64,000 bases of DNA. Origin: Tubulanus polymorphus (lineage: Eukaryota; Animalia; Nemertea). The stretch is from assembly GCF_964204645.1 (NCBI RefSeq), contig NC_134031.1, forward strand, positions 7,750,001 through 7,814,000, in the 5' to 3' direction. The notes beneath the pieces were generated by a model, which was not told the origin of the DNA, searched no databases, and saw only the letters and a program-made list of their open reading frames with translations. Position numbers and translations under genes: made by a program. Below, one piece after another: positions 17,501 through 48,811 of the stretch. How positions within the stretch are numbered: the first letter of the stretch is position 1; each line of letters starts with the position of its first letter.

Positions 17501-20500
17501 AAAGATCAAAAAACGACATAGTTCTGGGCACTGAGTCCGTAAACGGAGTACGATAGCTCCAGTTACGGAGGACAGTTAGCGCATGCACAATACTGCCGGT
17601 GTGTGGGATCTGTTTAACTACTTATAGCTTTAACCTATCTAACCCTATTATAATGCCTCACCTAACCCCCTAATCCTAACCCTACACCTAACCCCAATCG
17701 CAACCCTTCGAACCCTCTAGACCCTAAATCCAAATATGTAAAATATGACTCCAGCAGGCATTTATTACTGATATAATATGATTTTAAGTGTTAAAATCAA
17801 TAAGGAACAAATAAATTTCATGTCATCTCGGTTGATCTCGGTAAATAACGTCATCTCGGTTATAAGGAGGACCGATTTTCTTTACTACGGATTCTACAGA
17901 AACTGAACCGAACACGGCCTACTTTCGTTTTCCAAAGAAACTTGCCACAGTAAGCACACCGATAAATGATAAGCAGGTGTTGCACATGTCGGCCGGAAAT
18001 TGTACTATAAAATATTTTTATGATTTCAAGTGTTAAAATCGATAAGGAATAAATAAATATGTTATATTTCATGTCATCTCGGTTGATCTCAATAAATTAC
18101 GTCATCTCGATAATGAGGACCGGCGGATTGAAAAGATCATTTACCGCATGATACAGTAGAATTCTGACTTGCAATATTGGGATTCGAAGGGCCATCCTTA
18201 TTACCGAGATGACGCAATTTACCGAGATGACATGAAATATAACAAATTTATATATTCCTTATCGATCTTAACACTTGAAATCATATTATATCAGTAATAA
18301 ATACCTTCTAGAGTCATATTTTTCTAGATATTTTGTAAAAAAAATTCGGTTAGCAATAAGATTTCGTTGAATTTGATTGATTGACGATCTCATCTCGGTA
18401 AAGTCAAAAGTTATTTTTCTACAAAAATATCTGACAAAATATGTAAAATATGACTCCAGCAGGCATTTATTACTGATATAATATGATTTCAAGTGTTAAA
18501 ATCGATAAGGAATAAATAAATATGTTATATTTCATGTCATCTCGGTTGATCTCGGTAAAATACGTCATCTCAGTAATAAGGATGACCGGATTCGAAAACT
18601 AAACTAAACTAGGGGTCCAGGGACACCATGCCCACTTGGGAAGTGGTTCCAAATGCTCAACAATCTAACAATTTCAATATTCAACGCCCCCTGGTGACCA
18701 TATACAGAATCCAATGACCTTGAAACTCACCACAATCATAGAACATGTCACGAACTATAACTTTGTAATCGATCATGGTAACAAAATATGCCTAGGTACC
18801 AATATAATAAGGAAATACTAAGTTATTCTACTATTCAACGCCCCCTGGTGACCATATACATTAACTAATGTCCTTGAAACTTGCCACAATCAAAGATGAT
18901 GTCATGAGCTACAACTTTGCAATTGATTGTGGTTACAAAATATGCATTGATACGAATATAATATAGAAATACTAAGATATTGCATTATTCAACGCCCCCT
19001 GGTGGCCATATACAATAACCAATGACCTTGAAACTCACCACAATCATAGAACACGTTATGAGCTACAACTTTCTAAATAATTGTGGTAACAAAATACGCT
19101 TAGGTATCAAATACGCTTAGGTACCTGTCTCAGGTATAAAACATCCCTTTCCAAAGAATACCCATCACAAATTGCAATGAGAAATGATAAACCAGTAGGA
19201 AGCTACAAGGCCAAAATTAACATTTTTGGGCACTAAAAAGGTCATAGGACGGCCATCTTGAGTCCGATCGACCCAATTTTTTTTATGCTGATGGGCCCTG
19301 GGGGAATTCACATATATCCGAAAGATCAAGGTAATTGATCGAAGCGTCTTCAAAATTTCCCTCAAAAAGTTCAAAAATGTGTAAAAAGTGCTGATTTTGG
19401 CGAACAACAATGGCTGCCAGTCGGCCATCTTGAATCTGACAGGGCCAGTTTTTTGGGCTGAAGATGTGTCTAGGGTAGATACATGTGTAACCAAAATATC
19501 AAGACATTACCTTGAAGTGTCTTCAAAACTTCCCAAAATAACTGGATTCCGTCTACGGACGGACGAACGAAAAGTGAACGCAATAGCCCGCTGGGACTAA
19601 AGTCCCAAGTGGGCTAAAAATCATAGAGTGCTTTACCTGCTGAACCACCACACGACTGGAGGTTGGGTGAGAATTTATATATAGCCTCACCTTACCCTAA
19701 CCCTATTCTTTCACGCATGCGCGTACGTAGATATAGTGCAGATTCCCCGTAACCTTAACTGGAGCCAATTTGTTCCATCACAGGCACTTGAATATGGGCT
19801 TTGACCTTGTTGGTGTGTTAAAAATGATTAAATTTATCGTAATCTACAATAAAAACACCAATGGGATTGCCATCTTAATTATCCATGATGCAACTGTTTT
19901 ACCCATGATCCAATGCGCATCCCTCGTCTAACTATACTATACAGAAAGGCTGGAAACGCTCCTATCTCCGTAATGCTTAATTCTACCCACAAACACCGGG
20001 ACAGATGACGTCACAGCAATCCCGAAGAGGCATCAGGAATTTTCAAAAATCAATTTTGTTGCCAGTTAAAATCTTTAATGGAGCTAAAACAGTGTCAATG
20101 ATTCCAAAAAAATCATCTACAATTGAAATTATGAGCGCTCCTTATATTTCAGGATTACATTTGACACTAAGGACGTACTTCGGCAATCATCGGCAGTGTT
20201 CAGATGTCCCGTTAATGGGTCATCCTTATTACCGAGATGACGTATTTTTACCGAGATGAAATGAAATATAGCATATTTATTTATTCCTTATCGATTTTAA
20301 CACTTGAAATCATGTTATATCAGTAATAAATACCTTCTAGAATCATATTTTACATATTTTTTTGATAAACAAAAATTTTGACTTCAAATACGTAAACTCG
20401 GTTAGCAATAAAATTTCATTGAATTTGATTGATCGACGATCTCATCTCGGTAAAGTTAAGTTATTTTTCTACAAAAATATCCGACAAAATATGTAAAATA

Positions 20501-23448: not shown

Positions 23449-26190
23449 TTATATAACAGGTTCCCGTTCCAGCCTAATGATACAAAAATGAGTTGTTCCG
23501 TCGTTGCGAAGGAACACGTGAGCTCCTCCTCCGAGTAGTACTCCTCCGCTACAATAAGCGTCAGGATTCAGACCCTGGTATTGAGTTCCCACGTATGGTT
23601 TGAGTCGGTCGTAATGAACTGTTTTAGGGACGTTGTTGGGCACGTCCTGTATTTCATATACGGTTTCTGAGTGTCTCTGTAAGATGGTGTACGGTCCGGT
23701 CCACCTCAACTAAAACTTCCGGGAGGAATCGCAGCCCGTTATCTTCGGCTGATACAGCCAGACAGGATCTTGGGCCTCATAGGGTTTTCCGTATCGCCGT
23801 TGGTCGTGGAGATTCTTCTGACGAAGAGTATTCTTTGCTAAAGCTTTCCGGGCATCACGGTGCGCCGTCTCCATTCTTTTCCGAAGCTGACTGACGTACT
23901 CGGTGGCGGACGGATAGTTGTCTTTAGGTGGAAGACCAACTACGAGATCTACAGGGTGATCCACCTCCCGTAGCAGCATCAGATAGTTCGGAGACGCTTC
24001 GGCCGTGTTATGGCGGGCCGCGCGATAAGCCATAGCGGCAAAAGGTAACTGTTAATCCCAGTCGAAAGGATCGTCGACGGACATCAGAGATAACATCGAT
24101 ATCAGGCTGCGGTTAAAACGCTCGACCATCCCATCACTATAGGGCCTGTATGGAGTAGTACGGGTTTGTTTGATACCGAGGAGAGTGCAGACTTCTTTGA
24201 AATGTTTGGATTGAAAATTCGAACCCTGATCGGTGTGAAGCTCACGAGGTACGCCAAAACGGCTGAAAAATTCCGTCACTAGTTTGTTAGCTACCGTCTC
24301 GGCGTCCATGTTGGGAATAGCGTAGCATTCAACCCATTTGGTAAAATAGTCCGTAGCAACGACGACGTAGATGTTGCCGGCTGTGGTCTCTTGACGGGGG
24401 CCCATAATATCGACGGCTATACGCTCCATGGGTGCTCCTACGTTGTAGATCTGAAGTTCAGCCTGAAATTTCATCGCTGGGGATTTCTTCCGAGGACAGA
24501 GCTCACATTGTTGCACCCATAACTCAATAGCTTCCCTCAATCCAGGCCAATAGTACCTATGTTGCAACTTGAGAGAGTTTTCTCGATCCCCTGGTGTCCC
24601 CCAGTCCGAGCTGAATGGTGTTGGTAAAAAATAGTACGGCGAAACTTCGGCGGGACAATCAGCTGAGAAAATCCACCCTCCGATCTACACTCCCTGAACA
24701 GAATACCGTCGTTGAACGAAATGAGTTCCCACTGAGCCCAATATCGTTTGGCGTTTTGTCGGAGACGTCTCGCCAAGGTGGCTTGGGGTTGCCGGCCATC
24801 AGCCCGTCGATCGCCCACTCCAGGTCTTCATCAGTTCGCTGGGCTCTCTTGAGCTCTTCCAAGTCCCATGTCTCATCCAGTTGAGATTCAACGGTGCCCT
24901 CTTCGATCACGTGTATGTACTCTATCTTATCACACTGCTTACACGGCATCCTCGATGCCGTGTAACCCGTCAGCGTTACCGTGTATTACTCCTGGACGGT
25001 GTTCAATCTGGAAGTGATAAGTCGACAAGGCTTCCAGCCATTGAGCAATTTGCCCTTCGGGTTCCTTCAGATTCATCAGCCAACGAGGGGCGCTGTGATC
25101 GATACCGATGCGAAAGTTCTGTCCATAGAGGTAGTGCTTGAAATGCTTCACAAATAACACGACAGCTAGTAAGTAGTTCGCGCCGAGTCACGCAGTAGTT
25201 TTGTTCCGCGCGGTTAAGCGTACGACTTCCAAACGCGATCGGTCGCACCTCGTTCTCATGTATCTGACTCAATACTCCACCGATAGCAAAGGCACTAGCG
25301 TCGCAATCCAATACATACGGGTCCGTGACATTCGGGTAGGCTAAAATAGGTGCGTCGGTCAACTTCTCCTTCAGCTCCCGGAAAGCTTGTTCCTGCTCAT
25401 CGCCCCAAATAAAATCCTGGTCTTTAGCCGTGAGTCTATGTAGAGCTACCTGCGATCTTCGCGAAACCGGCGACGAATTTCCTGTAGTAAGTGACAAGGC
25501 CCAAGAAACTACGAACCTCCTTGACGTTTTTAGGCGTTAGCCAATCCCGTATACACTGGATCTTGGACAGGTCCGTCTGTATGCCCTCGTGACTCGCCAC
25601 GTGCCCGAGAAAAACTACCGACTGGAAAAGCGAGCACTTGCGGGGTTTAAGCTTGAGTCCGGCTTCTTCCAATTTACTGAAGATTAGCCGTTCGACCATC
25701 TCTTTCACCGAGCTACTAAACACCGACACGTCATCGAGGTACATTAAGCTTATCTCCCATTGGAGGCCAGTTAGTACCATTTCCATCAATCTTTCGAAAG
25801 TTCCCGGAGCTCCGGACATACCGAAAGGAAGTACAGTGAATTCCCCCAACCCACTCTGAGTTATAAAGGCGGACTTCTGCTTCGCATCATCGCTCAACGC
25901 AACCTGCCAATACCCGCAATTAAGATTAAGGGTGCTGAACCAGACGGCTCCTCCGAGACATTCCAGCGAGCGATTGACATTCCAGCGCCATGCTTTCGAT
26001 GGTCGTAATCTCATTAAGCCGACGATAGTCCACACAGAAGCGAGTGCTTCCGTCTTTCTTGGTTACCAATACGATCGGGAACGACCAAGGGGAGCGGGAC
26101 CTCGTGATCAAACCGCGGCGATGCATGTCTTCAATCAAATTTTCTGTCTCTTTACGCTAGGTTAAGGAAGGAAGTCTCGGCGCCTGTCGA
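23449..26190 (-). pseudogene. Ty3/Gypsy pol (RT, RNase H, integrase, GPY/F), many frameshifts and stops
   Basis: SPWSFPIVLVTKKDGSTRFCVDYRRLN, LPFGMSGAPGTFER, YLDD, LDCDASAFAIGGVLSQ, GHQG, IAVDIMGP, TDYFTKW, HTDQGSNF, GMVERFNR, WTGPY. Confidence 0.95.
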
Positions 26191-26355
26191 ATTGGTAAAA
26201 TATTATAAAACATGGCGGATTATCGAAGTGGGAACAACGTATCGCTGGTGAATTATTATATATTTATCCATTATCAAAGCCCATATTCAAGTGCCTGTGG
26301 TTCCATCCATCCATGGCAAGAAAAAAGACCGGGTCGGGAAAAGTGTCAAACATAC

Positions 26356-26472
26356 TTTTGAAACTGCAGTTTCTCCACCCAACGTTTCCAAGGCTTTGTC
26401 AACATTTTTAACAATCCCCGGATATTCAATGCTCATATATCGCTTTTTCTCTATCGGAACAGATAGCCGTTC
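26356..26472 (-). pseudogene. 5'-truncated duplicate of GTF3C5 exon 1 with intact donor and ~45 bp of intron
   Basis: ERLSVPIEKKRYMSIEYPGIVKNVDKALETLGGETAVSK|gtatgt; 3 amino-acid differences from the 20.8 kb copy; native ATG missing. Confidence 0.9.
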
Positions 26473-26730
26473 AGGACTGTATACTCCTCGCTCAATCGCT
26501 TCCTCACTCCCCATCGACTGTCAGTGGAGTGGGCCCGAAACCCCGTGGCGTTGGACCGAGAACTCTCCCGACAGTAGTTACCCCACCAACAGTTATTTTG
26601 CTGTTACTTGGTCCGAAGAGTCTCAAGTCGGATGTTTTTAGCCGTGGGCGGTGTGACTTTGGTATAGCTTCGTACGCGTCTCTTGAGAGTATAGTGCGGC
26701 AGGCGCCAGTATCTACCAAGAGGGCCGTCT
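26473..26730 (-). pseudogene. Gypsy aspartic protease fragment
   Basis: LLVDTGACRTILS motif. Confidence 0.8.
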
Positions 26731-27101
26731 GAACTTGTCCTATCTCGGTAATTATGTAAAGTCCATTAACGACGATTTTATCTGGGTGGCAATTAGCAAT
26801 TCGGACGATGCTTGTTGGAGGGGGCTACTCAATTTGATGAACGTCTCAGCGAAGCTGGTCTCAAGATTAAACCTGAAAAGTGTAGTTTTTTTCCGAAAGT
26901 CAGTCATATATCTCGGACACAAGCTGTCTGCTGCAGGTATCGAGCCGGATCCTGCGAAGATTCATGCAGTGAAAGACTGGAGTAGACCGACGACGGTGGC
27001 AGAAGCTAGGAAATTCCTAGGATTCTCTAGCTATTACCGAAAATTTATCAAGTCTATGCAAGAATAGCTGCACCATTAACTACTCTTCTCTCGGGGATAT
27101 C

Positions 27102-27491
27102 TGTAACCGGCTGGTTGTTGTATCGGCAGGCTGGCTGGGGAACTAGCATTTACACCAGCGGTACAGGATTCCATCCATCAGGAACAACAAGGCAGTTAAA
27201 CCTTATATGTACAATCTTTTTTGCATCCCGGAATGAGAATGATTATCATAGCTTTACATAGTCTTTATATACAGAATCATGAGTATAATGTGAGAACTAG
27301 GTGTCAGACAAGTTGTAGACATCAGGACTCACAAACAAACACCTAGTGACATGTTTGAGAGACATTAATTAATTATCGATGAGCACTGACTATAGCTAAT
27401 TATCGTGAAAACATGTTGAGTAATGTCACATGTTGATTACGACCTTAAAGCACATATTGACACTATAGTCATAAGTTATATTATATTATTA

Positions 27492-27586
<95 letters not shown>

Positions 27587-27639
27587 GTTATTGTTATTGT
27601 TATTGTTTTTTGTTATTGATATTGTTATTGTTATTGTTA

Positions 27640-27680
<41 letters not shown>

Positions 27681-27878
27681 GTTATCGTTATCGTTATCGT
27701 TATCGTTATCGTTATCGTTATCGTTATCGTTATCGTTATCGTTATCGTTATCGTTATCGTTATCGTTATCGTTATCGTTATCGTTATCGTTATCGTTATC
27801 GTTATCGTTATCGTTATCGTTATCGTTATCGTTATCGTTATCGTTATCGTTATCGTTATCGTTATCGTTATCGTTATC

Positions 27879-27929
<51 letters not shown>

Positions 27930-28019
27930 ATGTAGTAGAGCTATGAAATATATGAACTGTTCGATGTGACATTGTAGATCTATATGATTATGAAATATGC
28001 AAATTATATCAGGGTGACA
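27102..28019. mobile_element. Solo LTR containing an expanded microsatellite
   Basis: TGTAACC...GGGTGACA termini, 4-bp TSD TATC (27098-27101 and 28020-28023); the interrupted pol continues across the site. Confidence 0.85.
27474..27927. repeat. Compound microsatellite (TTA)n-(GTTATT)n-(GTTATC)~33-(TTA)n
   Basis: Directly visible. Confidence 0.98.
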
Positions 28020-28677
28020 TATCTAATCAAAAAGGGAAAAGAAAGATCGCAGAACAGAGCATGGCAATCGAGTGGTCAGGTGAATACGAATATAACAAGG
28101 CTTTTCTATACTTGAAGGAATGCCTCACTTCAACACCGGTACTAGGGTTTGCTGGCTATAAAAGTCGTCCCTTCGAACTGCACACGGATTGGTCTCATGA
28201 TGGTCTCGGAGCTCTGCTATATCAAGAGGATCTGGATGGTAGGTGTCGGGTGATGGCATACGCGAGTCGTGGGCTTAACTCATCGGAGAGAAAATATCCA
28301 ACGCATAAGCTGTAATTTTGGGCCTTAAAGTGGGCGGTTACCGAAAAATTTCATGATTACCTGTATGGTGGACCATGCCTCGTCAAGACGGATAACAATC
28401 CATTGACGTATTGTAAGACTTTGGTACACTTTTAAGAAAAAAATTAACTATTTATTTTTTATTATATTCACTAATCCAAAAATAATTGCACAGCACAACT
28501 GTAATTAAAGAGAAAATTGTATGTTCAGCAGCAAAGTTAGTGATATTTCCAGCAGATTTTAAAACAAAACCAACAATTGATGCTATAACTCCAGTAATTG
28601 GAAAAGTGGGGTTTCAGATCAGAGGTCGAGAGGTCGACACATCACTCATCACCACAAATAATTTTTCCCCACAATAA

Positions 28678-29025
28678 ATGGGAGATAGAAAAGCATTCTT
28701 AGCAACAATAAATAACAGAATAAAACCAGCAAAAAAACAATTTGAAATAAAAAAGTTAGTTGATGTTACAAAAGAAAGTGAACATGAGATATTAAAATTA
28801 GAAAAGGTAAAACTAAATATGGAGATAAAATATCAGCAAATTTAAGTTACTTTAATGTTAGTACATGGCGAGAATTTAAAGTATTTTTACCTGATAAATG
28901 GGTTTCATTGAGTACAGAGGAATTAAAAGATTTAGAAGGATTTATAGGATTTTTTAGAAGGATTTAAAATAATCTATCATGGAAAAAATGAAGCAGGGCA
29001 TCATGATTTAGAAATTGTTGATTAA
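28678..29025 (+). pseudogene. Small viral ORF, frameshifted, unknown function (possible OB-fold)
   Basis: TAAATG start; MGDRKAFLAT...ILKLEKV/KTKYGDKISA...FKVFLPDKWVSLSTEELKDL...YHGK. Confidence 0.5.
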
Positions 29026-29201
29026 TTAAAAAAATAGAAAAATGAAATAATAAAAAAAATAAGAAAATAGAAATAATGAATATCAAGAATCCGAAATGAC
29101 TTATCTGGACAATTCAATTGCTCCACGTAGATAGACAAAAGTAGTGAGATATTTAATTAATTAAAAATAAAATTATTTTGTTTGCTTTTTTCTGCTTTTT
29201 T

Positions 29202-29576
29202 CTAAAATATCACTCCATTTTTTATTATGAATTTTGGAATTTCAGAAGTATTTTCATTTTTAGTAGCAGTAGTTTCAGAATTATTAATATCATAAATTTT
29301 ATTTGATTTCTTATACCAACTACACCCAATCAAAATGAATACAACTTCAAATCCAGTTTTAAAATATAAATATTTATCAAATATTCTCTTATTAGAAGTA
29401 GTAGAAATAACAATATTTTCACCATTTTCATTAACATTTTTATTATTTATTTTTTCTTTTATAGCTTTTTTATATTCTAGTGATCTAATTCCTAATTGCC
29501 GAGACCAGTCAATTTGTTTCTGAGTTCTCGGTTTTTTCTTCACAGTTAATTCCTTCGCTTCCTCCACCTCGCTCAT
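29202..29576 (-). CDS. Viral hypothetical protein with basic N-terminus and one hydrophobic segment
   Basis: 124-aa ORF, TAAATG start directly after the upstream stop. Confidence 0.6.
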   Translation of the reverse strand: MSEVEEAKELTVKKKPRTQKQIDWSRQLGIRSLEYKKAIKEKINNKNVNENGENIVISTTSNKRIFDKYLYFKTGFEVVFILIGCSWYKKSNKIYDINNSETTATKNENTSEIPKFIIKNGVIF

Positions 29577-29579
29577 TTA

Positions 29580-30113
29580 TTATAGAAAAATTTTACTTTC
29601 AATATTTGAAAATGTTATAACTCCAGTTGATAAAAATGTCATAAATCCACCTAATTGAAATGATAAATATCCAATCCATTTATTTAATTCAGCCATAACT
29701 AAATAATCATTTTTTAAATCGGAATATAATTTATTTTCATCTTGAATTGGTAGCATATAATTACATAATTTACTATAACCTATTACTACATTTTCTGATA
29801 CCGCATCATTAATTCTAGCTGTTCTCGCAGTTTCATAAATCTTAAATAATCTAATAATTTCATCTGATTTCATTGTATCTAATTCATTATAAGTTAAATT
29901 TTTACTAATAAAATTTTTACATTTCCCAGATGCAATTAATATTTCTAAGTGATGTTTGCAATAAAGATAATATTCATAATTATTATTTGTTGTAACATCA
30001 TTAAAAGCACCATCATCTGGAGTTAATTTTGTTTCTGTTATTCCTAAATCATCTAAAGTTTTTTCAATTGCAACATCACTATTTTTATATTTCATTTTCT
30101 TTTCACCACCCAT
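29580..30113 (-). CDS. Viral hypothetical protein with hydrophobic C-terminus
   Basis: Intact 177-aa ORF in very AT-rich DNA, TATATAAATG start. Confidence 0.7.
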   Translation of the reverse strand: MGGEKKMKYKNSDVAIEKTLDDLGITETKLTPDDGAFNDVTTNNNYEYYLYCKHHLEILIASGKCKNFISKNLTYNELDTMKSDEIIRLFKIYETARTARINDAVSENVVIGYSKLCNYMLPIQDENKLYSDLKNDYLVMAELNKWIGYLSFQLGGFMTFLSTGVITFSNIESKIFL

Positions 30114-30344
30114 TTATATAACAAAAAATTTATTTGTTTTGTTGCAACTAGAATTGAACTAAAATTTAACTAGAATGTAACTAAAAATATACTAGATTAA
30201 CAAGCTAGTTAAAATATTGTTGTTTCTATTTATTTCTTGTTTAATTTTATTTGATTTTTGTTTCAACTACTAACAACTAGAATTCAACTAGAATGTAACT
30301 AAAAATATACTAGATTAACAATCTAGTTGAATTTGAATAAATTC

Positions 30345-30939
30345 TTATTTAAATGGGTGTTTTAATCGAAATAGTAATTTTGATCTTTTATTATTTTTCA
30401 ATTTATCCATATATTCATTATGTAAATCATGTGGAATAACATTATTTTCCTCAAGTGCATTTTTCATCGATTTTCTATCTTTATTGTAGAATAAAACTAG
30501 AAATCTTATAATCTCCCTAAAATCTTTAACAATTGGATTATTTTTTTGATTTAAAACCCATGATGTTATGCCAAAATGTCTCCCAGAGAAAGCTAAATAG
30601 CACAACTCACTTTTTCTAACTTTTGAATCATGTAAATTAGCACAATCATCTATGATGAATAATATATTTGATCCTTTATAAATATCAATTGCTATTTTAA
30701 TACAATTATCTAAATTTTCTTTAACTGTTTTAGGATCTAATACAATAAATTTATTATTTCTAGTAATATTTCTATCATAAGTTTGATTAAATTCATACGT
30801 TGGACAAAATAATACTATATTATCAAAATAGTTTTTATAAACAGTTTCTAATAAATTTAATATAAAATAAGTTTTTCCACGATTTGTTACGCCTGAAATT
30901 AACATATTATGAGGTTCAAATATAAAATTCCTTATTCAT
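30345..30939 (-). pseudogene. A32/FtsK-like DNA packaging ATPase (frameshift near the start)
   Basis: Walker A ISGVTNRGKT, Walker B LFIIDDC, SGRHFGI...NQ Arg-finger/sensor motif. Confidence 0.9.
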
Positions 30940-32062
30940 TTATATATTTTTAATTTTCCTTGATAATATCCATTCATTAAATTTATCTGGCCATCCAACC
31001 CATTTTACTAAAGGATATTTTTTTCTATTAACAGTTTTTGTTTTTAGTACCTTTTCAATTTTATATTCATGTTCTAGATTTTCAGTAGTTAAACTTAATT
31101 CTTCTTCATAAAAATACCTATCAACTTCTTCACCATTTAAATCTTCTAATTTATAGACATATGGTTTTGTTGTTATTACCTCTTTTATTTTATATATTTC
31201 TCTAGTAAAATTACGATCGTATCCTTTGTCAAATATCTTTCTATACTTAGAAATTCTAACATTTTGACTCTTTAAATTTAGGTTCACCAAAATCATCTAC
31301 AAGAAATGCCCCATACAAATTATTCCAAACAATTTCAGCATTTTCAGGGTTTCTAGCAACAATAGGTTTCATTCCAATAGAAGAATGATAAGAATAGTTA
31401 TATCCTTCTATCAATTTTGGTAAAACATCCATTTAAAAGTATTATTTGCTGTAAAATATTTCCACATTGTTGTTCTTAATGTTCTATTAAATCGTTCAAC
31501 AACTGCTGCTTTTTTATCCGATTTTGTTGAAAAGTATTGAATGTTATGATTATCTAAGAGTTCATGAACAAGTGAATTATCAAATTCTTTTCCATCATCA
31601 AATTGTATTTTTTCTGGTTTTAGTTTATCATCCGAAAGAAATTTTCTTAAAACTAATGATGTTTGTGCAGCATCTTTTCTATAAATTGGGAAGCTCCATA
31701 CATAACGACTTAAAATATCAATTATATTCAATATCCACCAATAATCATCATCATCTTTCTTAACATTTTTCATATCAATTAAATCTCCTTGCCACTGTTG
31801 ATCTACATAACTTACCATAGTTTTACGAGTTCTATATTTTCTAAAAAAATTTTTATGTGTTGTATATATTGGTAAGTCTAACATAAATTCACTTATATCT
31901 TTATATTTAACTAAATTTTGTGGGATTATCTTATCTAATTTATCTTGTTTTACTTGACGCCATATATCTTTTACAGAAGAATAAGCAACCGAACTCTCAG
32001 GATTATAATATAATTTTCTTAAATATTACTCTTTAGTATTAGGAGTTTTTTTTATTCCCCAT
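30940..32062 (-). pseudogene. Polinton-type retroviral-like integrase with C-terminal chromodomain (frameshifts)
   Basis: LYYNPES, YTTHK, QWQGDLIDM, IIDILSRY, IQFDDGKEF, AVVERFNRTL, NVRISK..IFDKGY..NFTREIY, chromodomain YKIEKVL...LVKWVGWPDKFNEWI. Confidence 0.93.
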
Positions 32063-32092
32063 TTATATATCGTTAATTTTAACTTAATATTT

Positions 32093-33335
32093 CTAATATT
32101 GAATACTATATAATTGAGAATTTATAATATTTAATTGCGCGTCAGATATAATATAAATGTCCATTTTGAAATTTTTGATCCCTTTTTTCTTTTTCATGAA
32201 TAATTGGATTCCATCGTTTGTGTTCTGTAGTTTTTTTACCAGAACCATGTAATGAATTATCCTCTGTTGTTCTAAAATCTAACCATAATGCGTATTTATT
32301 GCCGGTATAATAATCAATTTGATTAATATTACAATTTTCAGATGATTTTACTTTTTCATTCATAAAATGTTTTCTAATTTCTGGCCACTGATCTATCATT
32401 CTCATTCCTTGACAAAATATTTTATTTGCTATACCTTCAATAGTTATTTCTACCTTTGATATTTCAGGATTATAATAATTATCAACATTCATTGCACCAT
32501 TAGAATATGTTGCAATGGTAAAAAATATTAATATACCTTTAATAGATTCTTAATTCTTGGGAAGTTAATATTCTCATTAATTATTTCATCATTTGCATTA
32601 ATAGTTACAGTTTTAAATTTATCAATGTAATCATATGATAATGAAAATCCTTGATTGTATTGAGTTTGAATTATGCTTGAAATATTTTTATCAGTTACTG
32701 TATCATATTCTAAACATTTTGTAACCCATATCTTTAACTACACTTGATAATACAATTTCATTAACAGGAGCAAATGTTATCTCGAATATAATATCTTCTT
32801 GAATTGCGTATTTATATAAAGGTGCATTATTATTTATCAATTCAAAGTCTAATGGAATTTTATATTTGCTTCCATTAATCTTTTCCATCAAATTATCTGT
32901 AGCATTAGTTATTATTGCATTATTAGCTTCTGATCTTAATTTATTATGGTTTTCTGATTGGATGCCTTGAAAAATCATATTATTTCTATTTTCTTTAGTT
33001 AACCATAAATCTTTATAATGCATAAATAAATTATAATCATCTAATGAAAAAACTGTTTCTGGTCCAATCTTTATAGTCAATTTTTTAATCAAATATCTTC
33101 CAACATTATCAACAACATAATTATTATCATGGCCAGTTACTTTTATATAAACTGACAAATAAATACTATTTGGAACATAAAAAGTATTTTGATTTAATCT
33201 CGGGATTCTAACATATAAAGTTTCATCATGATTAATATTAGAAGGATCATGAGTAGTTATATGATGAGATCTCTCTGCTTTAATAGCATTAGATATTCTA
33301 GAATTCTTAGAAGGATTTATATAACTACCACTCAT
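32093..33335 (-). pseudogene. Putative major capsid protein (fragmented, ~410 codons)
   Basis: Beta-rich ORF pieces 32703-33335 and 32142-32492 joined across frameshifts, ending ISDAQLNIINSQLYSIQY*; size and position typical of a double jelly-roll MCP; fold not verified. Confidence 0.6.
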
Positions 33336-34845
33336 TTACTTGACAAAAAAATTAATTATTTATTTTTATCATATTCACTAACCCAAAAATAATAGCACTA
33401 ACAATTGTAATTAAAAATAAAATAATATGTTCAGCAGCAAAACTAAGAATATTTCCAGCAGAATTTAATACAAAACCAACAATTGGTGCTATAACTCCGG
33501 GTTAAGCGGCAGCAGATTTTTAAGATAGTTCCCATATATATTTTGCTAATTTTTTTAAACCATCCTTAACTTTATCTTGTATGAATTATTATTTGGAGGT
33601 GGTTTATCCGGTTTATTGGGAGTTAGTGTAGATTTCAGTGAATTTGATATGGCTAAACATATTGTTGTGAATACCATAGTTACAGCTGTTAGAATTGAAA
33701 GAATTGTGATACCTTCTAATTCAAATAATAATTTTATTCTATCTTTCAATGATATTTCAGAATTTGGTTTATCAACAAATCTTTAAAAATAACTTTTAAT
33801 CTATTAATATTATAATATATAATTATATTAATATCATTAATATAATAATAATTTAATTTCTTCTTTCCGAAATTCTATGTTATATTCTAAATCATCTTTT
33901 TCTTTTTCTTAATATGCATTTCTTTTTTTTAAATTCAATTTCTTCAATAACTTTATTATCGCTATCTTATTTTAATTGTTCTATTTCTTTAATCTTATCA
34001 GTTCTATCTTTTTCTAAAGTTCTAATTTTAAAATCTCATACTTTTGTCATGCGCAAATTTATCAGCTATATTACTAATACTAATAATTTCTCTAATTGCT
34101 TTATCAGAAAATATATTTAAATCTTCTAATTGTTGATCTGTTACATCAAGTAATCCATTTGGTAAAATTTTTTCAATTGGAACTTTATTTGATTTAAGTT
34201 TACTAGTTTTGGAAGTTATATTCTGTTCAGAAGTTGTTTCTGTTTCTAAATTATCATTGATTGTTTCAAATAATCTATCAATTCTTTCTTTAAATACTCT
34301 TTTATTTTGATTTACTTCTTCTTGTGTTACATTTTCTATTTCATTACTTTTACTTATTCTTTTAATTCTAGATGGTTCTAAATTACTCAAAGTTGATTCT
34401 GCTAATATTTTATTTTGATTTTTATAAGTGATATTAATATGATAATCATCTTTCAAATGATAATAATATTCACCATCTAAAAATTGCAATTCTCTTGCTA
34501 AATATCTGGCACCTGTATCATTTATATTATACCCAGATTTTTCAAATATAGGTTTAGAATTATTTATATATTCATTATATTCTAAATATTCATTATATTC
34601 TAAATTCTGTCTTACTAAATCTGGATTTTCATTTTCAATGTTTATTCTTCGTCCAGCTCTTCTATCAAAATCGCCTGTTGATATTATATTATCATTAAAA
34701 TCACTATCTGCTAAATTATTATTATATATTCTGGCTCATTACCATCATTAAAACTTGTTTCATGAAAATCAGGCGGTTGTTCTTCAGTTATGCCAGGTTC
34801 ATCAAAAGTATCCATTCCAATATCTTCTCCACCTTCTACATCCAT
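33336..34845 (-). pseudogene. Large viral ORF: acidic N-terminus, coiled coil, C-terminal hydrophobic/amphipathic helices (fragmented)
   Basis: Starts MDVEGGEDIGMDTFDE..ETSF; ends RIKLLFELEGITILSILTAVTMVF...PGVIAPIVGFVLNSAGNILSFAAEHIILFLITIV. Confidence 0.65.
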
Positions 34846-35098
34846 TTATATAATAAAAAAGATAAAATTTAAAATATAATATTCCCCCTATTACAATTCC
34901 TATACAAGTTATAGCTAATTTAGTATTTTCATGTGTTTTATTATCAATATCACTTCTAATTATTTCATGCTGAATATTATCAGTTTTTATATTTTCTGAT
35001 GTATTGTAATCTTTTATTTTAGAATCATTATTTAATTTAATATTCTTAGTTTTAGTTTCAGTTGATTGAATATGTTTTTTAATTTTTTCACCTTCCAT
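34802..35098 (-). CDS. Small viral protein with one TM helix
   Basis: LAITCIGIVIGGILYF segment. Confidence 0.5.
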   Translation of the reverse strand: MEGEKIKKHIQSTETKTKNIKLNNDSKIKDYNTSENIKTDNIQHEIIRSDIDNKTHENTKLAITCIGIVIGGILYFKFYLFYYINGCRRWRRYWNGYF

Positions 35099-36110
35099 TA
35101 ATTTTGGAGCAGTAATTATCTTTTTTATTTATATCATTTAATCCAAATGAATTATGTATTGTTGCAGTTTTAATTAGATTATTAAAACCAATTATATTCC
35201 CCATTTTTAATATTAAATCATCAGAAATAATTAATAAATTAGGACCTATACAATAATTTAATCTTACATAAGATTTATCTAAATAATTTTGATATCTTAC
35301 TATATTGTCTGGAATTGATCTATTTTTATCATTATGAATTGAATCTTCAAATAATTGTTTTTGTGTATCAAATGATGTATTTAAATTTCCAATTATAGGG
35401 GAGCTTGTTTCAACCTGTGATCCTAACATACAAATCAAATATATTTTAATAGATTGATTTATTCGTTGTATACCTATTTTTGTAAAACCTTCACTATTTT
35501 CTATAATAAAATAAACCCAACCATTATTATTTTCTTGTTTTAAATTATCATAAAATTTCGGCAATTTATTTAAATTTAATTTTTTTAAACTAAATCAATA
35601 TTTTCTATTTTACCATAACCTAATTTATTATTATACATATTATAAAAACTATAATATGGTATGGGAAGTGTGCAATGTTGTAAAATATTTTCAGGACAAG
35701 GAATTGATCTTATTATTCCAATTTTTGTTCGAAAATCAGAATTATTTATATTTATATTAAATTCATCACGAACTTTATAAAACTTTGATAAATCAATATT
35801 ATTATCTAATTCTTTAAAATATCTAGATCCTGGTAAAGGACATTCTAATTCATTTAATATAAATCTAATTTGATAATAAGTATGAAATCGAAAAAAACTT
35901 TAATTTATATTTTGAATTATTTGAATGATCGTTCCAACTATTTCCACATCCTGTTGTTGCACAATAAACTGCAAAATTTAATTGGTTCTGCCAATACTTC
36001 ATTTTGATAACCATTGCTTTTCATCTTTCAATTTTTTTTTAATTATTGAAGTATTTTGTTGATAATTGCTGTGAAATCAAATTTGGGGGGATTTTTTTTT
36101 TATTTGGTTG
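35088..36110 (-). pseudogene. Viral hypothetical protein (YWQNQLNFAVYCATTGCG motif), fragmented and 5'-truncated
   Basis: YWQNQLNFAVYCATTGCG, FFRFHTYYQIRFILNELECPLPG, GFTKIGIQRINQSIKIYLICMLGSQVET. Confidence 0.65.
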
Positions 36111-40385: not shown

Positions 40386-43300
40386 ACCGCAAGTCAAACA
40401 AAATAAAGCATTTACTAAAAATTGCATATCAAACATATTCAAAAACTGACAAACAGGTGCTGCCATCTATGGATATCATAAGGCACTAAAATCAAAGTCT
40501 CAAAAACTTTAGAAAAAGGCTCTGAAGGCGAGCTCAAACGCTTAGTACAAAATATAACTACTCGGAAAGAATGGCAAATGTTATAGATAATATATGTGAG
40601 TTGTAAAATGTCTTACCAAAGCATATGACCGTCTAAAACTTCTAAAAAGATGTAGGCCTACGCTAAAATACTAAAAGAAACGATTGATCCAAATTTCCAC
40701 AAAGCCAAACCATCACCACTTCCGCTCACCAGGTGGCGCCACACCACCACCCAGGCCAAACACTAAAACAAGGGAAGTATTTGCCGCAACATACCAGCCC
40801 CCCAAATGGGCAAGGTCCTATGACATCCTTACATAACGGGTCAAATGCTTTGACGCCTCTAAACATACAGCAAATTATGACTTATTTCACTTAACACAAC
40901 CATATAAATGCAACTCAAAACACTAAAAAATCTCCTTAAGGGGGGGTAGAAACCTTGCATCGATTATACTAAACTAGATCACTACATAACTACTAAAATA
41001 CAGTATAGACTACATGTAGGGCCTATAAAGAATTTAAAAAGAAACTGCACTTGATTTAATAGGTAGACCGATTGTCCTAAAACGTAAGTTATTGCAGCAA
41101 CATAGTTAAAATGACAGATTAAATGCTAAGTACGAGTGTACAAAGTCTTACGGCTAGTCTGCTTCTACTAATACACATAGCTTGGCTACAGGTCTACGAA
41201 ATTCACTAACAGCTCGAACATAACCTTTAGAGTCGGGCTCAACACTGACTACCCTACCGAGGGCCCACGAGTTACGCACCCTTGAATCCATAATAAGGAC
41301 AACGTCCCCAACTACGACATTTTGACGCAACCGAGACTATTTTGACCGAACTTGAAGCAGCGCCATATATTCCTCACACGATCTTTTCCAGAACAACGAT
41401 GCCTAGTATTGAACCTGACGCCATCTATGCTTCGCATACCCATCTTCTTTCGTGAAAACGCCAATTGGAAATCGAATTTTGGATTCAGGAGCAGAAGATG
41501 ATTTGGAGTGATGGGTCTTGGATCATTAGGGTTGTTCATGTCCATTTCGTACAGCGGACGATTGTTGAGTATTGACTCCGCTTCACAAAACACTGTGCTA
41601 AGCATTTCGTTGTTCAGGGCTTTTGATTGTCCGCGCAAAAAGTGGAACACAATTTTGCGTACCAATCTGATCATTCGTTCCCAGATGCCGCCGAAATGTG
41701 AGGCTAGCAGAGGGTTAAAGCTCCACTCAAAATGCTTTTCGAGGCAAGACCGTGATATCATCCTTATCCAGACTCTCCAACGCATGCTTCATGTCGGCAC
41801 TGGCGCAAACTAGGTTGGTGCCTTTATCAGACCGCATTTTTTTGATTGCCCCACGCCTAGCTATGAAGCACCTTATATCATTGAAACATGAATCCATATC
41901 TAACGAATTCGCGACTTCCAGGTGAACGGCCCTGCTGGCCATACACGTAAAAACGACGCCATAGCGCTTCGCAACGCTGCGCCCGGCTTTTACATCGAAG
42001 GGGCCGAAGTAATCCACGCCGGTGTTTGAGAACGGTAGTTTGTCAGTCGCTAAACGCTCTTTCGGTAAATCGGCCATCTTTTGGTCGACCTTATCGTCAC
42101 GATATTTCCGGCGATCGACGCACTCGTTATTATCGATTTGATAAAGCCGGGGCAATGAGTAATCCGGAACCTTTGTCCCACGTATCGCAGAATAGAATTC
42201 TTGCCCATGTGCCCTACGGCTCTGTGCGCGTCTTCCGATATGAGCAACGATATGCGAGAGGTTTTTGATAATACAATTTGGTGTTTCTGGTCGAAAGGCC
42301 CTATTGCGCGTTCAAGGCGAACACCGACCCGAATCACATCATCGTTCAGGAATACGTCGAGACCTTGCAGCTGGCTAGCTCGTTTTACCCGTGCATCGGT
42401 TTTCAGCTGCTCGTGCTCGGAGCTGAAGGTCTTCTGTTGCGAATGCTTTACTAGGAGCAACTCTGCCTCCTCTATGACGGATCGATTTAAGAACACGGTT
42501 GTCGCTCCGGCGGGTTTCGTCGGGCCAAGTTTTCTTGGCCGAACAGTAGGAGCCACGCCACACCACGCTTCAGATGCCACCAATCTGAGTAATGTTCAAT
42601 GAGCTTATCAATAGGCTGCGTAATACAAACGACCAAAGTAGCAGCGACGGGTCTTTTTAATTCACGACTGTCGACTAGACTTCGATCCACGACGTCGAGC
42701 GGCCATTCTGATCAGTCTTTGATGAGGAATTCTGGTCCGTTAAACCAGATCTCATCCTTTACTGGGGACATCTCATCCTTTACTGGGGACTTGCTTGGTT
42801 GCAAACCTCTTGAGACGAAGTCTGCTGGCTCTTATGACGTTTACTCGGTTGGTCACGAATGTTTGGTATCTCGCCGTATCATTTGCGATACATCTTAGGA
42901 CACTCATGCTGTCCGTCCAGTAGAAGACTTCGTCGAACTCGATATCTAGTTCTCTGGCTACCATGCTGTGCAAGCGAACTGCAAGAGTCACAGCGATGAG
43001 CTCCATGCGTGGTTATCTTCTTTAGATGCGCAACCCTAGATTTCGAGATTACCAAGCTACACGTGACGTTGCCGGATGGGTCAGCTACTCACAAATAACA
43101 AACAACACCATGCCCCGTTTCACTTGCGTCGGTGAAGTAGTGGAGTTGGTACTTTTGGCGCGTCTGATCGTTGAGGGGCGAGGCATCGTGGAATCGAGAC
43201 TAGTTCTAGAGTGGTAATTCTGTCGGCCTAGGCTTCGAATCGCCTTTGTTGGACTCGGGTGATTGCTTCATCCCATCTGATGCTGTCTCTGTACAACTCT

Positions 43301-45119
43301 TGCAGCAGGATCTTGGCTGGCAGAATATACGGTGACACTAGCCCTAAGGGGTCGTAAACCGAACTAACGACTGACAAAATACCCCGACGAGTGGCAGGTT
43401 TGTTTCGATCCAAGCTAATGTTAAAGGTTAGGCTGTCGTTTTCAACGTCCCAGGTGACACCTAGGGCGCGCTCTGTTGGCAGTCGATTATTGTCCAAGTC
43501 TAAATTGACGCTTGGTGACCATTCTTCGTGTTAGAACGCTTTCATGACGGCGTGACTAACCGCCTTCCATCTGTATACGATGTCTCCCAGGATGCGGATG
43601 GCTTCTTCGTCAGAATTGAGAGACTTCAGGCAGTCATCTACGTAGAACGAACGCTTAATTCCTTCTACAGCTTTGGGTCTTCTTTCGACGTCCCCATTCT
43701 CGGCTGTACGACGCAAGGGCTAGATGTAGCCAATGAGACACCACCGAAAAGGTGCACTTTCATGCGGTAACAGGTGGGCTCAGAATTGAGGTCTCCGTCT
43801 TTCCACCACAGGAACCTAAGATAATCTGTGTCTTCTTTAGGCACTAAGACTTGGACACTAAAACATTGCCTCGATGTCCGCAGTGACCGCTACTCGATTT
43901 TGCCTGAATCTGAGGTGAACACCGACAAAGGCGTTAATCAAATCGGGTCCCTGCATAAGTGCATCATTTAGAGAAACTCCATGGTACTTCGCCGCGCAAT
44001 CGAAAACCACTCTTATCTTGTTCTTCTTTGGGTGATACACCCCGTAGTGCGGTAGGTACCAAACGTCTGTCTCTTTGTTTAATTCGCAATCAGGCACGAT
44101 TTCAGCGTATCCCTTTTCGATAACTGACTGCATGAAAGACGTATAATCTTCTCGGAACTTCGTGTCGGCGTTAAGCCTTCTCTTTAGGCTATTCTAACGA
44201 AGCATGGCCATCGACTTGTAGCATGGCATCTTCGCGTCCTTCAGAGGCAGACGTATCTCATAATGGCCGTTCACTAGCTCGACTTTGCCGCTTATCTTAT
44301 CCATGAAGGCTTTGTCCTCTTGCGACCACTGCTTCTTGTCTTCAATTATTCTTTCCGGAAAGTCGTGATTGAACATTTCTGTCAGGCGACGATCGATTTC
44401 ATGTAGCTGCTGGTTATCCGATATCGAACTCGTGACTATCATGTGAGCCTGATCCATGGACTGACGAGTTCGGCGGTGCACAAAGATATCGAACTTTCCG
44501 GGTCGAGGAACACATACGTGACTATTTCTGCAAGTTCGTCTTTAGCTCGGACTCTGACCGGTATCAGGGCCATTATGCCGTGACCGTCTCCTGTCTGTCA
44601 TGCACTGGTTGCTCCGCTAGCTTTCGCATTCTTGTTTGATGCTGTAAATTGCGCCATTTTTTGCCCGATTTTCCCCAAAAAAATCAATAGTCGAGGGGGT
44701 GAGAAATTTTTTGGAGCTACCCCCTTAACAATTAAGACCTATATCTGGTACCAAAACTGATTTGAGCTCTGATGCCCTCTCAAGTAAAGTTGAAGAGGCC
44801 TATAAATGATATTGAAGTGGATGATACATGTTGGTGTTGTACGGTACGCCTAGTATTAGTTCAACCTAATCTGGATTACGCTATAATTTCATAGGCCAAA
44901 TATTTTCTAATCTAAAGTTCTAGGCAATCAAAATTTATGCATTTTGTCTACAAAATGTACAGCCCTACAAGGGGAGGATCTCTGCATCCTCGGTTCCTGA
45001 GTAGGCCTACTTCTCCGTCACAGCACCACAGATGTTTGAAATTTGGAAGTGGATATTTTGTGGATAACTCGCTCTGATTGGCTTATCCGAACCACGCAGT
45101 GGAGGTTAGAGTTAGATAT

Positions 45120-48229: not shown

Positions 48230-48811
48230 ATGATGTCTTTTCGACAAGGCGAGGCCAGACCATCCGGTTCAGATGGCAGCGATTTTGCTCATCGTGAGCG
48301 AGTAGCGATGCATTACAAAATCAGCGTGCTCAACAAATCACGATTGAAAAAGATCGGCGCTCTACACGCAAGTTTGTTCGTCCTCGTTCTCGTATCGTGT
48401 CTGGAGAGTCTCATGAAAGCCGTGAACATGAAGCCACCGGCAGCCGTGCTTGACCTACGCTTACCCGCGGCTGAACCGTGGCAGTTTATGTGGCTGATCA
48501 GTATAACATCCACCGTATTTGGACTACTGTCGCTGTCAAAAAATGCATCCGTTCTACTGAAGCAGTGTATCGTCGGTAATGTCGTATTCGGTATAATGCC
48601 CGTCACGTACGCTGTGTTTTATAAGGGATACGAGTTGATGGACTTCGTCAAGGAGCGCAAGGTGAAGGCTTACGTACTCGGTTTCCCGTACGTTGTGCTG
48701 ATGTTTATTTTCTTGACGATCGCGATTCAAATTCACATGTTCGCGATATATTTTTCGATGCAACTGCTCAAATCGTGGAGGTCGACGACGACGAATAAGA
48801 AGAAGAAATGA
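48230..48811 (+). CDS. JAGN1: Protein jagunal homologue (ER membrane protein)
   Basis: GSDGSDFAHRERVAMHY signature, four hydrophobic segments, C-terminal W...KKKK dilysine ER-retrieval motif. Confidence 0.95.
   Translation: MMSFRQGEARPSGSDGSDFAHRERVAMHYKISVLNKSRLKKIGALHASLFVLVLVSCLESLMKAVNMKPPAAVLDLRLPAAEPWQFMWLISITSTVFGLLSLSKNASVLLKQCIVGNVVFGIMPVTYAVFYKGYELMDFVKERKVKAYVLGFPYVVLMFIFLTIAIQIHMFAIYFSMQLLKSWRSTTTNKKKK

Follow-up and report, generated by a model that had tools for sequence, protein, structure and literature searches.

Mavirus, an integrating virus of the protist Cafeteria, encodes an rve integrase. Its promoters mimic the late promoters of the large virus CroV, whose late motif is TCTA (PMC5294985), and the provirophage is proposed to stay silent until this helper arrives (bioRxiv 10.1101/068312). 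Polinton-like viruses (PLVs) of animals have been found in entomopoxvirus occlusion bodies and are proposed to be hyperparasites of poxviruses (Barth et al., 2024, PMC11296320); they have lepidopteran hosts, an A32 ATPase, divergent capsids outside the Maverick groups and a cysteine protease in all four, two of them without detectable integrase. The main text of that article contains no occurrence of "promoter", "TAAAT" or "motif". Other PLVs outside the Maverick groups, likewise integrated in animals and with a divergent capsid and an A32 ATPase, are represented by ATPases from Octocorallia, Hydrozoa and Bivalvia (bioRxiv 10.64898/2026.06.19.733378, in the available part of which no promoter analysis was seen) and by Polinton-3_NV (PMC11296320).

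In the portions of the literature available here, the vaccinia late promoter comprises a TAAAT initiator overlapping the ATG (PMC4542343), a T core with a spacer of 5–7 bp (PMC5294985), and a T at the tenth nucleotide upstream of TAAAT (PMC11980589). The AT-rich linear virus-like elements pGKL1 and pGKL2 of yeast cytoplasm also use a TAAAN initiator, with slippage, and pGKL1 relies on the poxvirus-related RNA polymerase of pGKL2 (PMC6211774).

Results

A decayed polinton-like virus

The window is a stretch of 64,000 nucleotides from the nemertean Tubulanus polymorphus. Within it, an AT-rich island at about 28413–36100 (GC about 0.24) encodes an integrase, an A32 ATPase and a double-jelly-roll capsid protein and, by this gene content, represents a polinton-like virus that was integrated and has since decayed. 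Gene sizes below refer to the related locus L001 where so indicated.

27956..28412 (+): left flank, LTR-retrotransposon RNase H fragment stopping at the element
28413..36100 (no strand): endogenous polinton-like virus, truncated, rearranged and frameshifted; boundaries approximate
28437..28592 (−): 3'-terminal part of the 485-aa gene in a second copy, diverged (87%)
28678..29022 (+): broken homologue of the 114-aa L001 gene (51% identity), function unassigned
29202..29576 (−): conserved gene of 124 aa, homologous to L001 130 aa
29580..30113 (−): conserved gene of 177 aa, homologous to L001 206 aa; C-terminal part hydrophobic
30126..30331 (no strand): duplicated AT-rich non-coding repeats, about 90 nt, 86%
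30345..30939 (−): A32-like packaging ATPase, frameshift near the 5' end (Pox_A32 E=5e-11)
30940..32062 (−): rve integrase with C-terminal chromodomain, split over several frames (rve E=1e-8; Chromo E=1e-4)
32093..33335 (−): double-jelly-roll major capsid protein gene, split over several frames, assigned from relatives and the fold of relative P0002
33355..34845 (−): homologue of the 485-aa L001 gene, broken; C-terminal part hydrophobic
34859..36002 (−): homologue of the 442-aa L001 gene, broken and truncated at the 5' end; includes an internal Met at 35098

The window capsid fragment is 73% identical to P0002, whose model (pLDDT 81) matches the SGIV and PBCV-1 capsids in Foldseek at E=1e-14; in this ranking by fold, NCLDV capsids come ahead of those of mavirus and Sputnik. 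L001 carries repeats at the position matching those of the window, and its 442-aa protein has no family match and no Atlas match. The element shares with Maverick/Polinton groups 1–2 (Polintoviricetes) the rve integrase, ATPase and double-jelly-roll capsid; candidates for a penton and for pPolB are present in relatives, whereas neither protease nor terminal repeats were detected in the window. A cysteine maturation protease has no match among the ORFs scanned in the window and relatives, all loci being incomplete, and neither terminal inverted repeats nor a target-site duplication occur at the ends of the window copy, which look truncated. Protein-primed DNA polymerase B was not found in the truncated window or in L001; a candidate is a fragment of locus L005 that is 32–43% identical to long ORFs of L028 and L057, the pPolB label being given by motifs, with no polymerase Pfam match. 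The penton candidate, found in L001 (565–1329) and not in the window, gives a poor model (pLDDT 42) that best matches the mavirus penton (E=2e-4, TM about 0.2). PDB sequence searches returned no significant match.

TAAATG at the gene starts of the window

All seven true gene starts of the island are preceded by TAA, as the preliminary description had stated, and four of them share the identical 10-mer TATATAAATG, which occurs nowhere else in the 64 kb.

28658..28680 (+): promoter-like site with T run, spacer and TAAATG (ATG 28678)
29574..29596 (−): T run and TAAATG (ATG 29576)
30111..30133 (−): T run and TATATAAATG (ATG 30113); nearest upstream stop 231 nt away
30937..30959 (−): A-rich upstream DNA and TATATAAATG (ATG 30939); TAA doubles as the integrase stop
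32060..32082 (−): A-rich upstream DNA and TATATAAATG (ATG 32062); capsid stop 30 nt before
33333..33355 (−): T7 run and TAAATG (ATG 33335)
34843..34865 (−): T6 run and TATATAAATG (ATG 34845)

Position 35098 (TTAATG), previously counted as an eighth start, is instead an internal Met within the frameshifted homologue of the 442-aa protein: residues 361–442 of that protein map to 35110–34859, and no match to its first 80 residues was detected at the right end, where the element is truncated. The tally of true starts with TAAATG is therefore seven of seven. Six of these are backed by intact relatives aligning from or near residue 1, and the start at 34845, for which the tblastn match begins at residue 77, by its position and a similar N-terminus. 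Enrichment over the AT-rich background and over other ATGs, which had been set as a check, is borne out. TAA precedes 16 of the 274 ATGs in 28412–36100, that is, 7/7 starts versus 9/267 others (Fisher p=5e-10), and against the TAA frequency of upstream DNA (6.4%) the window starts give p=4.5e-9. In addition, T occupies position −13 at all seven starts, an upstream T core that had been overlooked.

Conservation of the motif among relatives

In the window and 12 related metagenomic loci, TAAATG is present at 53 of 58 starts versus 83 of 2081 other ATGs (a background of 4%), counts that pool orthologous promoters across loci and are hence not independent. TAAAT lies within −8 to +2 of the start in 56/58. 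T is found at −12 in 48/53 TAAATG starts versus 29/83 non-start TAAATG (p=4e-11) and at −13 in 44/53 versus 30/83 (p=7e-8), and the spacer from −11 to −7 is unconserved, with no base above 58%. Within the single genome L001 all 15 non-homologous genes have TAAATG, 14 of them with T at −13; when one start is taken per gene family the figures are 21/21 and 19/21. In divergent gene pairs the two ATGs, each within TAAATG, lie 19, 28, 28 and 30 nt apart, which leaves almost no room for 5' leaders.

The loci with TAAATG form one capsid clade (SH-aLRT 95 in a quick tree), and L005 retains the motif at a GC of 0.44. Capsid relatives outside the clade have TAAATG in 0/14 and TATA, which resembles the late initiator of ASFV, in 12/14; these sister loci are themselves AT-rich (GC 0.29–0.33). 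Related copies are numerous in run X1, from which 2842 contigs align to 3.4 kb; a run presumed to be RNA gave a single aligned contig. ATPase and capsid scans of the viral contig collection found no relatives, the integrase scan of the same collection matched L028 only, and scans of the genome contig collection found none.

Discussion

The reading of these sites as promoters is well supported on sequence grounds: the motif is conserved across the clade, its T core is placed as in vaccinia (about 10 nt ahead of TAAAT), the divergent spacers are short, and explanations by coupling or by Kozak context fail. By sequence, poxviruses are the best match and not the only one. TAAATG stands at 118 of 948 starts (12%) in 79 giant-virus Rpb2 loci, and at 10 of 19 starts (2 of them forced by the search) in a 505-kb giant-virus contig, L055. 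Unlike vaccinia, as far as the available descriptions go, the signal here marks almost every gene of a small element in which neither an early class nor a polymerase was seen.

Virophage-style mimicry of the promoters of a cytoplasmic helper virus is the best reading of this pattern and probably the correct one. The ORFs scanned in the window and relatives yielded no subunit of an RNA polymerase, which counts in its favour, nor any capping or transcription-factor family. The T core, spacer and TAAATG would be recognized not by host polymerase II but by a large cytoplasmic DNA virus infecting the same cell, through its RNA polymerase and late factors; transcription would start inside AAA, where slippage would produce a 5' poly(A) leader, as it does in vaccinia. 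The whole gene set, integrase and nucleoside kinase included, would be expressed at the post-replicative stage of the helper, and integrated copies would be silent until it infects the cell, as for mavirus and CroV. The dependence on a pox-like or NCLDV helper that was proposed in the preliminary description thus stands as the likeliest explanation, argued from promoters, while no helper gene or helper genome was found in the sequences examined. A poxvirus-like helper is the leading candidate, though short of an even chance overall, followed at a somewhat lower probability by another nucleocytovirus with the same initiator. The element is, from its genes, a polinton-like virus, and its placement among virophages in the taxonomic sense goes beyond present support.

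Mavirus and the PLVs of entomopoxvirus occlusion bodies are the precedents for such a lifestyle. The element differs from mavirus in its initiator, in its animal host, in a clade capsid closer to NCLDV-type folds by Foldseek, and in that helper dependence is proposed here from promoters. With the entomopoxvirus-associated PLVs it has in common an A32 ATPase and a divergent capsid that falls outside the Maverick groups. The element clade may belong to the same group as the animal PLVs outside the Maverick groups, to which it is likened by description.

Alternatively, a TATA-less promoter that is compact and leaves hardly any 5' leader could be read by host polymerase II, perhaps with an element-encoded activator, or the motif could be a relic of past helper dependence in a family that now spreads as a nuclear transposon. 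We consider this unlikely, despite several observations in its favour. Integration through an rve-chromodomain integrase is nuclear. Two other observations also count against a helper: the many copies in run X1 would fit efficient nuclear spread for which a helper is unnecessary, and RNA-seq shows expression of polintovirus genes in coral, in a clade that may differ from this one, no helper being mentioned in the available text (PMC11131425). On the other side, the motif is evidently under selection, as it is kept by intact relatives at 52–83% capsid identity, and divergent ATGs are only 19–30 nt apart. The T at −3 that TAAATG imposes is a disfavoured Kozak base. Coding strands contain 127 AATAAA where 136 are expected (z=−1.4), which is no depletion, a weak point that has no host control.

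A polymerase supplied in the manner of pGKL1/pGKL2, by a cytoplasmic plasmid-like partner or by full-length family members, appears decidedly improbable. The clade is known from incomplete genomes only, the longest being 11.5 kb, so that transcription genes could still be encoded by the element itself; those gene families are nevertheless absent from the ORFs scanned. To our knowledge, pGKL1/2 have neither capsid nor integrase. The shared TAAAN initiator with slippage speaks for this source, but the yeast elements encode their own polymerase, their upstream element resembles poxvirus early promoters whereas the core here is late-like, and such genes are stated to be unreported in polintoviruses in the part of the article available (PMC6211774).

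A role of TAAATG in translation, through stop-start coupling on polycistronic RNA or as an A-rich start context, is already largely refuted and highly improbable, as is an artefact of AT composition. In favour of these readings, the start of the ATPase directly adjoins the integrase stop both in the window and in L001, G follows the ATG in 37/53 starts and the element DNA is very AT-rich. Against them, the TAA closes an in-frame open stretch of at least 50 codons in only 4/53 starts, to which coupling is thereby limited, the motif is present at divergent starts, translation offers no explanation for the T peak at −12/−13, and the low background and the AT-rich sister loci speak against composition. 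The earlier argument that coupling does not explain all starts is correct, since only 30939 abuts a real upstream stop in the window; the TAA at 28678 closes an open stretch of 63 codons that runs antisense to a gene fragment, and the start at 29576 lies one codon after an upstream stop.

No TAAATG motif in polintons was found in print in the literature accessible here: animal polintons are absent from titles and abstracts matching TAAATG and polinton, and a term search of PMC8097293 gave no occurrence of a TAAATG-type promoter. With a copy of a cytoplasmic late promoter that is clade-wide and exact in position, it becomes directly testable whether animal polintons live as autonomous viruses of the nucleus or as parasites of larger viruses, and a large DNA virus that has so far escaped notice is to be expected in the host. 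More broadly, and as a tentative and rather doubtful proposal from sequence comparison, a clade of integrating polinton-like viruses of aquatic invertebrates may be provirophages of undiscovered poxvirus-like viruses, with TAAATG clades using a pox-type polymerase, TATA sister clades an asfarvirus-type one, and helpers switched by rewiring about 20 nt at every gene. If true, the contrast between sister lineages would offer a way to predict helpers by sequence alone, and high-copy integration could be a heritable antiviral defence in animals.

Two further features of the sequences were considered. Depletion of T5NT, the poxvirus early terminator, in coding strands (11 vs 30, z=−4.7) was rejected as a specific signal; T5, T6, A6 and A7 runs are also depleted, reflecting general homopolymer avoidance, and T5NT follows only 5/44 stops. 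A clean split of starts into T-type and A-type by gene class holds only partly and has exceptions: upstream DNA is A-rich for the ATPase, the window integrase and a 408-aa family, as in the vaccinia intermediate class in the descriptions available, and mostly T-rich for capsids.

A dead polinton-like virus in the window

An AT-rich island at approximately 28413–36100 in the window has a GC content of ∼0.24, against 0.35–0.50 in its flanks, and the ORF fragments inside it have Pfam matches to an rve integrase carrying a chromodomain, to the Pox_A32 ATPase and, weakly, to Capsid_N. A metagenome scan returned 24 loci. Full-length capsid relatives, mostly of 414–420 aa and at most 73% identical to the window capsid, have a predicted double-jelly-roll fold (pLDDT 81), and the top Foldseek matches of the modeled relative are NCLDV capsids. 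Synteny with L001, one of these loci, comprises the 442-aa and 485-aa genes, capsid, integrase, ATPase, repeats, and the 206-aa and 130-aa genes. Most element genes in the window contain frameshifts, the right end has been truncated, and at the rearranged left end an LTR-retrotransposon RNase H fragment adjoins the element, which is a polinton-like virus (PLV) present as a dead copy. The transposon landscape and a jagunal gene on the 21.6-Mb contig indicate that the host is probably an animal. In sequencing run X1, possibly from the sample that yielded the window, 2842 contigs match 3.4 kb of the element (486 at 99% or above, 921 at 95–99%, 1069 at 90–95%, and 366 lower), which suggests many copies in that run, the depth not being a copy number.

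A two-part signal at gene starts

The seven window starts named in a preliminary description all lie in TAAATG, and TATATAAATG, present at four of them, occurs nowhere else in the window. The eighth start claimed there, at 35098, is an internal methionine, giving a window score of 7/7. The enrichment over other ATGs that it had proposed to check is found (7/7 starts vs 9/267 other ATGs, p = 5e-10).

Starts in the relatives were picked by hand from ORF lists with the motif visible, taking the first ATG of ORFs that had family membership or a Pfam match, or were long and unshadowed. ORFs lacking an N-terminus and antisense shadows were left out. Near-duplicates (everything in L002, plus the capsid of L009 and the ATPase of L014) were excluded as well, together with L014:1203 and the L017 integrase, two sister ORFs whose starts are uncertain, and the degenerate loci L018–L024. 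Across the window and 12 loci, TAAATG is present at 53/58 starts vs 83/2081 other ATGs, and TAAAT falls within −8 to +2 of 56 of the 58. T occurs at −12 in 48/53 TAAATG starts vs 29/83 non-start TAAATG, and at −13 in 44/53 vs 30/83; A is at −18 in 81% of the 53, and positions −11 to −7 lack conservation. Because orthologous promoters are related, the counts were repeated within a single genome and with one start per family: L001 alone has TAAATG at 15/15 starts (T at −13 in 14), and the one-per-family set at 21/21, of which 19 have T at −13 (p = 2e-7). Four more starts at contig ends, outside the 58, likewise have TT at −13/−12 and TAAATG. In a quick IQ-TREE capsid tree of 68 rows, the careful search being unfinished, the window groups with the 12 TAAAT loci in a single clade (SH-aLRT 95), and the sister loci L013, L016 and L017 lie outside it. 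The TAAATG start pattern of the element is real.

Likeness to poxvirus late promoters

The vaccinia late promoter is TAAAT(G/A) with T 10 nt upstream and a 5–7 nt spacer (PMC11980589, PMC5294985), and salmon gill poxvirus has the late element, with the slippage mechanism stated (PMC4542343). The poxvirus likeness first proposed for TAAATG holds for the full two-part signal, T core plus TAAATG, which is closest to the published poxvirus description; TAAATG itself is used more widely. A scan of viral contigs for the head-to-head promoter pattern gave 31 loci, 9 of them without TAAATG at any ORF start. One, L028:1-9034, is a second polinton lineage with a different ATPase (27% identity) and an extra N-terminal domain on its integrase; it has TAAATG at 7/7 ORFs, one forced by the search, and a weaker T core (T at −13 in 2/7). 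It also encodes a probable pPolB, labelled by its motifs, in which an endonuclease VII domain is present. Two giant-virus contigs, which we take to be of pithovirus/iridovirus-like affinity, combine a T run with TAAATG: L055 (505 kb) at 10/19 starts, 7 with T at −13, and L044 at 3/14 starts, beside an Rpb2 gene, with two starts forced by the search in each. An unselected sample of giant-virus Rpb2 loci (79 of at least 6 kb among 120 returned, early and late genes mixed and unclassified, presence of a poxvirus among them not known) has TAAATG at 118/948 starts, with T at −13 in 50 of the 118, far below the PLV clade (p = 5e-7); it shows that TAAATG is in wider use and does not tell which virus fits best.

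How the signal may be read

Judging from the signal, a helper's cytoplasmic polymerase probably reads it. Transcription would start within the AAA of TAAAT, the slippage leader would put A at −3 of the transcript, all element genes would be expressed post-replicatively, and copies deposited by the integrase would remain silent until infection, as proposed for integrated mavirus (bioRxiv 10.1101/068312). Counted against this proposal are that no helper virus was found, that no locus holds a complete element, that the host has many copies, and that coral polintoviruses are expressed (PMC11131425). T5NT depletion, considered as a specific signal, was rejected, the depletion being non-specific.

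That Pol II reads the signal, or that it is a relic, is unlikely; against Pol II, only 19–30 nt separate the ATGs of divergent pairs in L003, L009, L010 and L012 (64–72 nt in other pairs). A polymerase supplied by a partner or self-encoded is more doubtful still, none having been found among the scanned ORFs of the element and its relatives. A translation signal is very improbable: the TAA closes an open frame of at least 50 codons in only 4/53 starts of the window and 12 loci, which also bears out the earlier remark that stop-start coupling is no general explanation, and T at −3 runs counter to the Kozak context, which favors a purine there.

Promoter mimicry is already known in protist virophages (bioRxiv 10.1101/068312), and PLVs are known from entomopoxvirus occlusion bodies (PMC11296320), in a report whose main text contains none of the terms promoter, TAAAT and motif. 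A 2026 preprint (bioRxiv 10.64898/2026.06.19.733378) describes PLV ATPases from corals, hydrozoans and bivalves that lie outside Maverick groups; these PLVs possibly belong to the family of the window element. Among the papers and passages covered, none reports animal polintons with TAAATG promoters.

Sister loci with TATA

At similar AT content, L013, L014, L016 and L017 have TAAATG at 0/14 starts and TATA at most 12 nt from the ATG in 12/14 (background 51/500, p = 3e-10), resembling the TATA of the ASFV late initiator (PMC7163114). L013 and L016/L017 are on separate branches of the capsid tree. A related capsid cluster, P0208, lies outside the TAAATG clade and has 135 members; the contigs that carry those listed range from 55 kb to 1.05 Mb, which suggests mass integration in another genome.

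Cargo genes and surroundings

L001:10340-10981(−) and, in another related locus, L006:2895-3377(−) encode a deoxynucleoside kinase as cargo (Pfam dNK, E = 1e-31); the L001 copy begins at TAAATG. L001:2541-2975 encodes a SLATT-like two-transmembrane protein with weak Pfam and NCBIfam matches. The window also contains the following features, of which the mobile elements are nested.

Features of the window around the element
1-2034, −, RT/RNase H element, which we take to be DIRS-like
2656-4395, +, DUF4371 hAT-type transposase
8640-9330, 14040-14570 and 18600-19135, dispersed family of ∼154-nt tandem repeats
23700-28412, both strands, gypsy-type fragments
27480-27930, (TAT)n/(TTATCG)n microsatellite
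41300-44550, −, presumably a BEL/Pao-like element, without Pfam match
48230-48811, +, uninterrupted jagunal host ORF of 193 aa (Pfam E = 1e-55)
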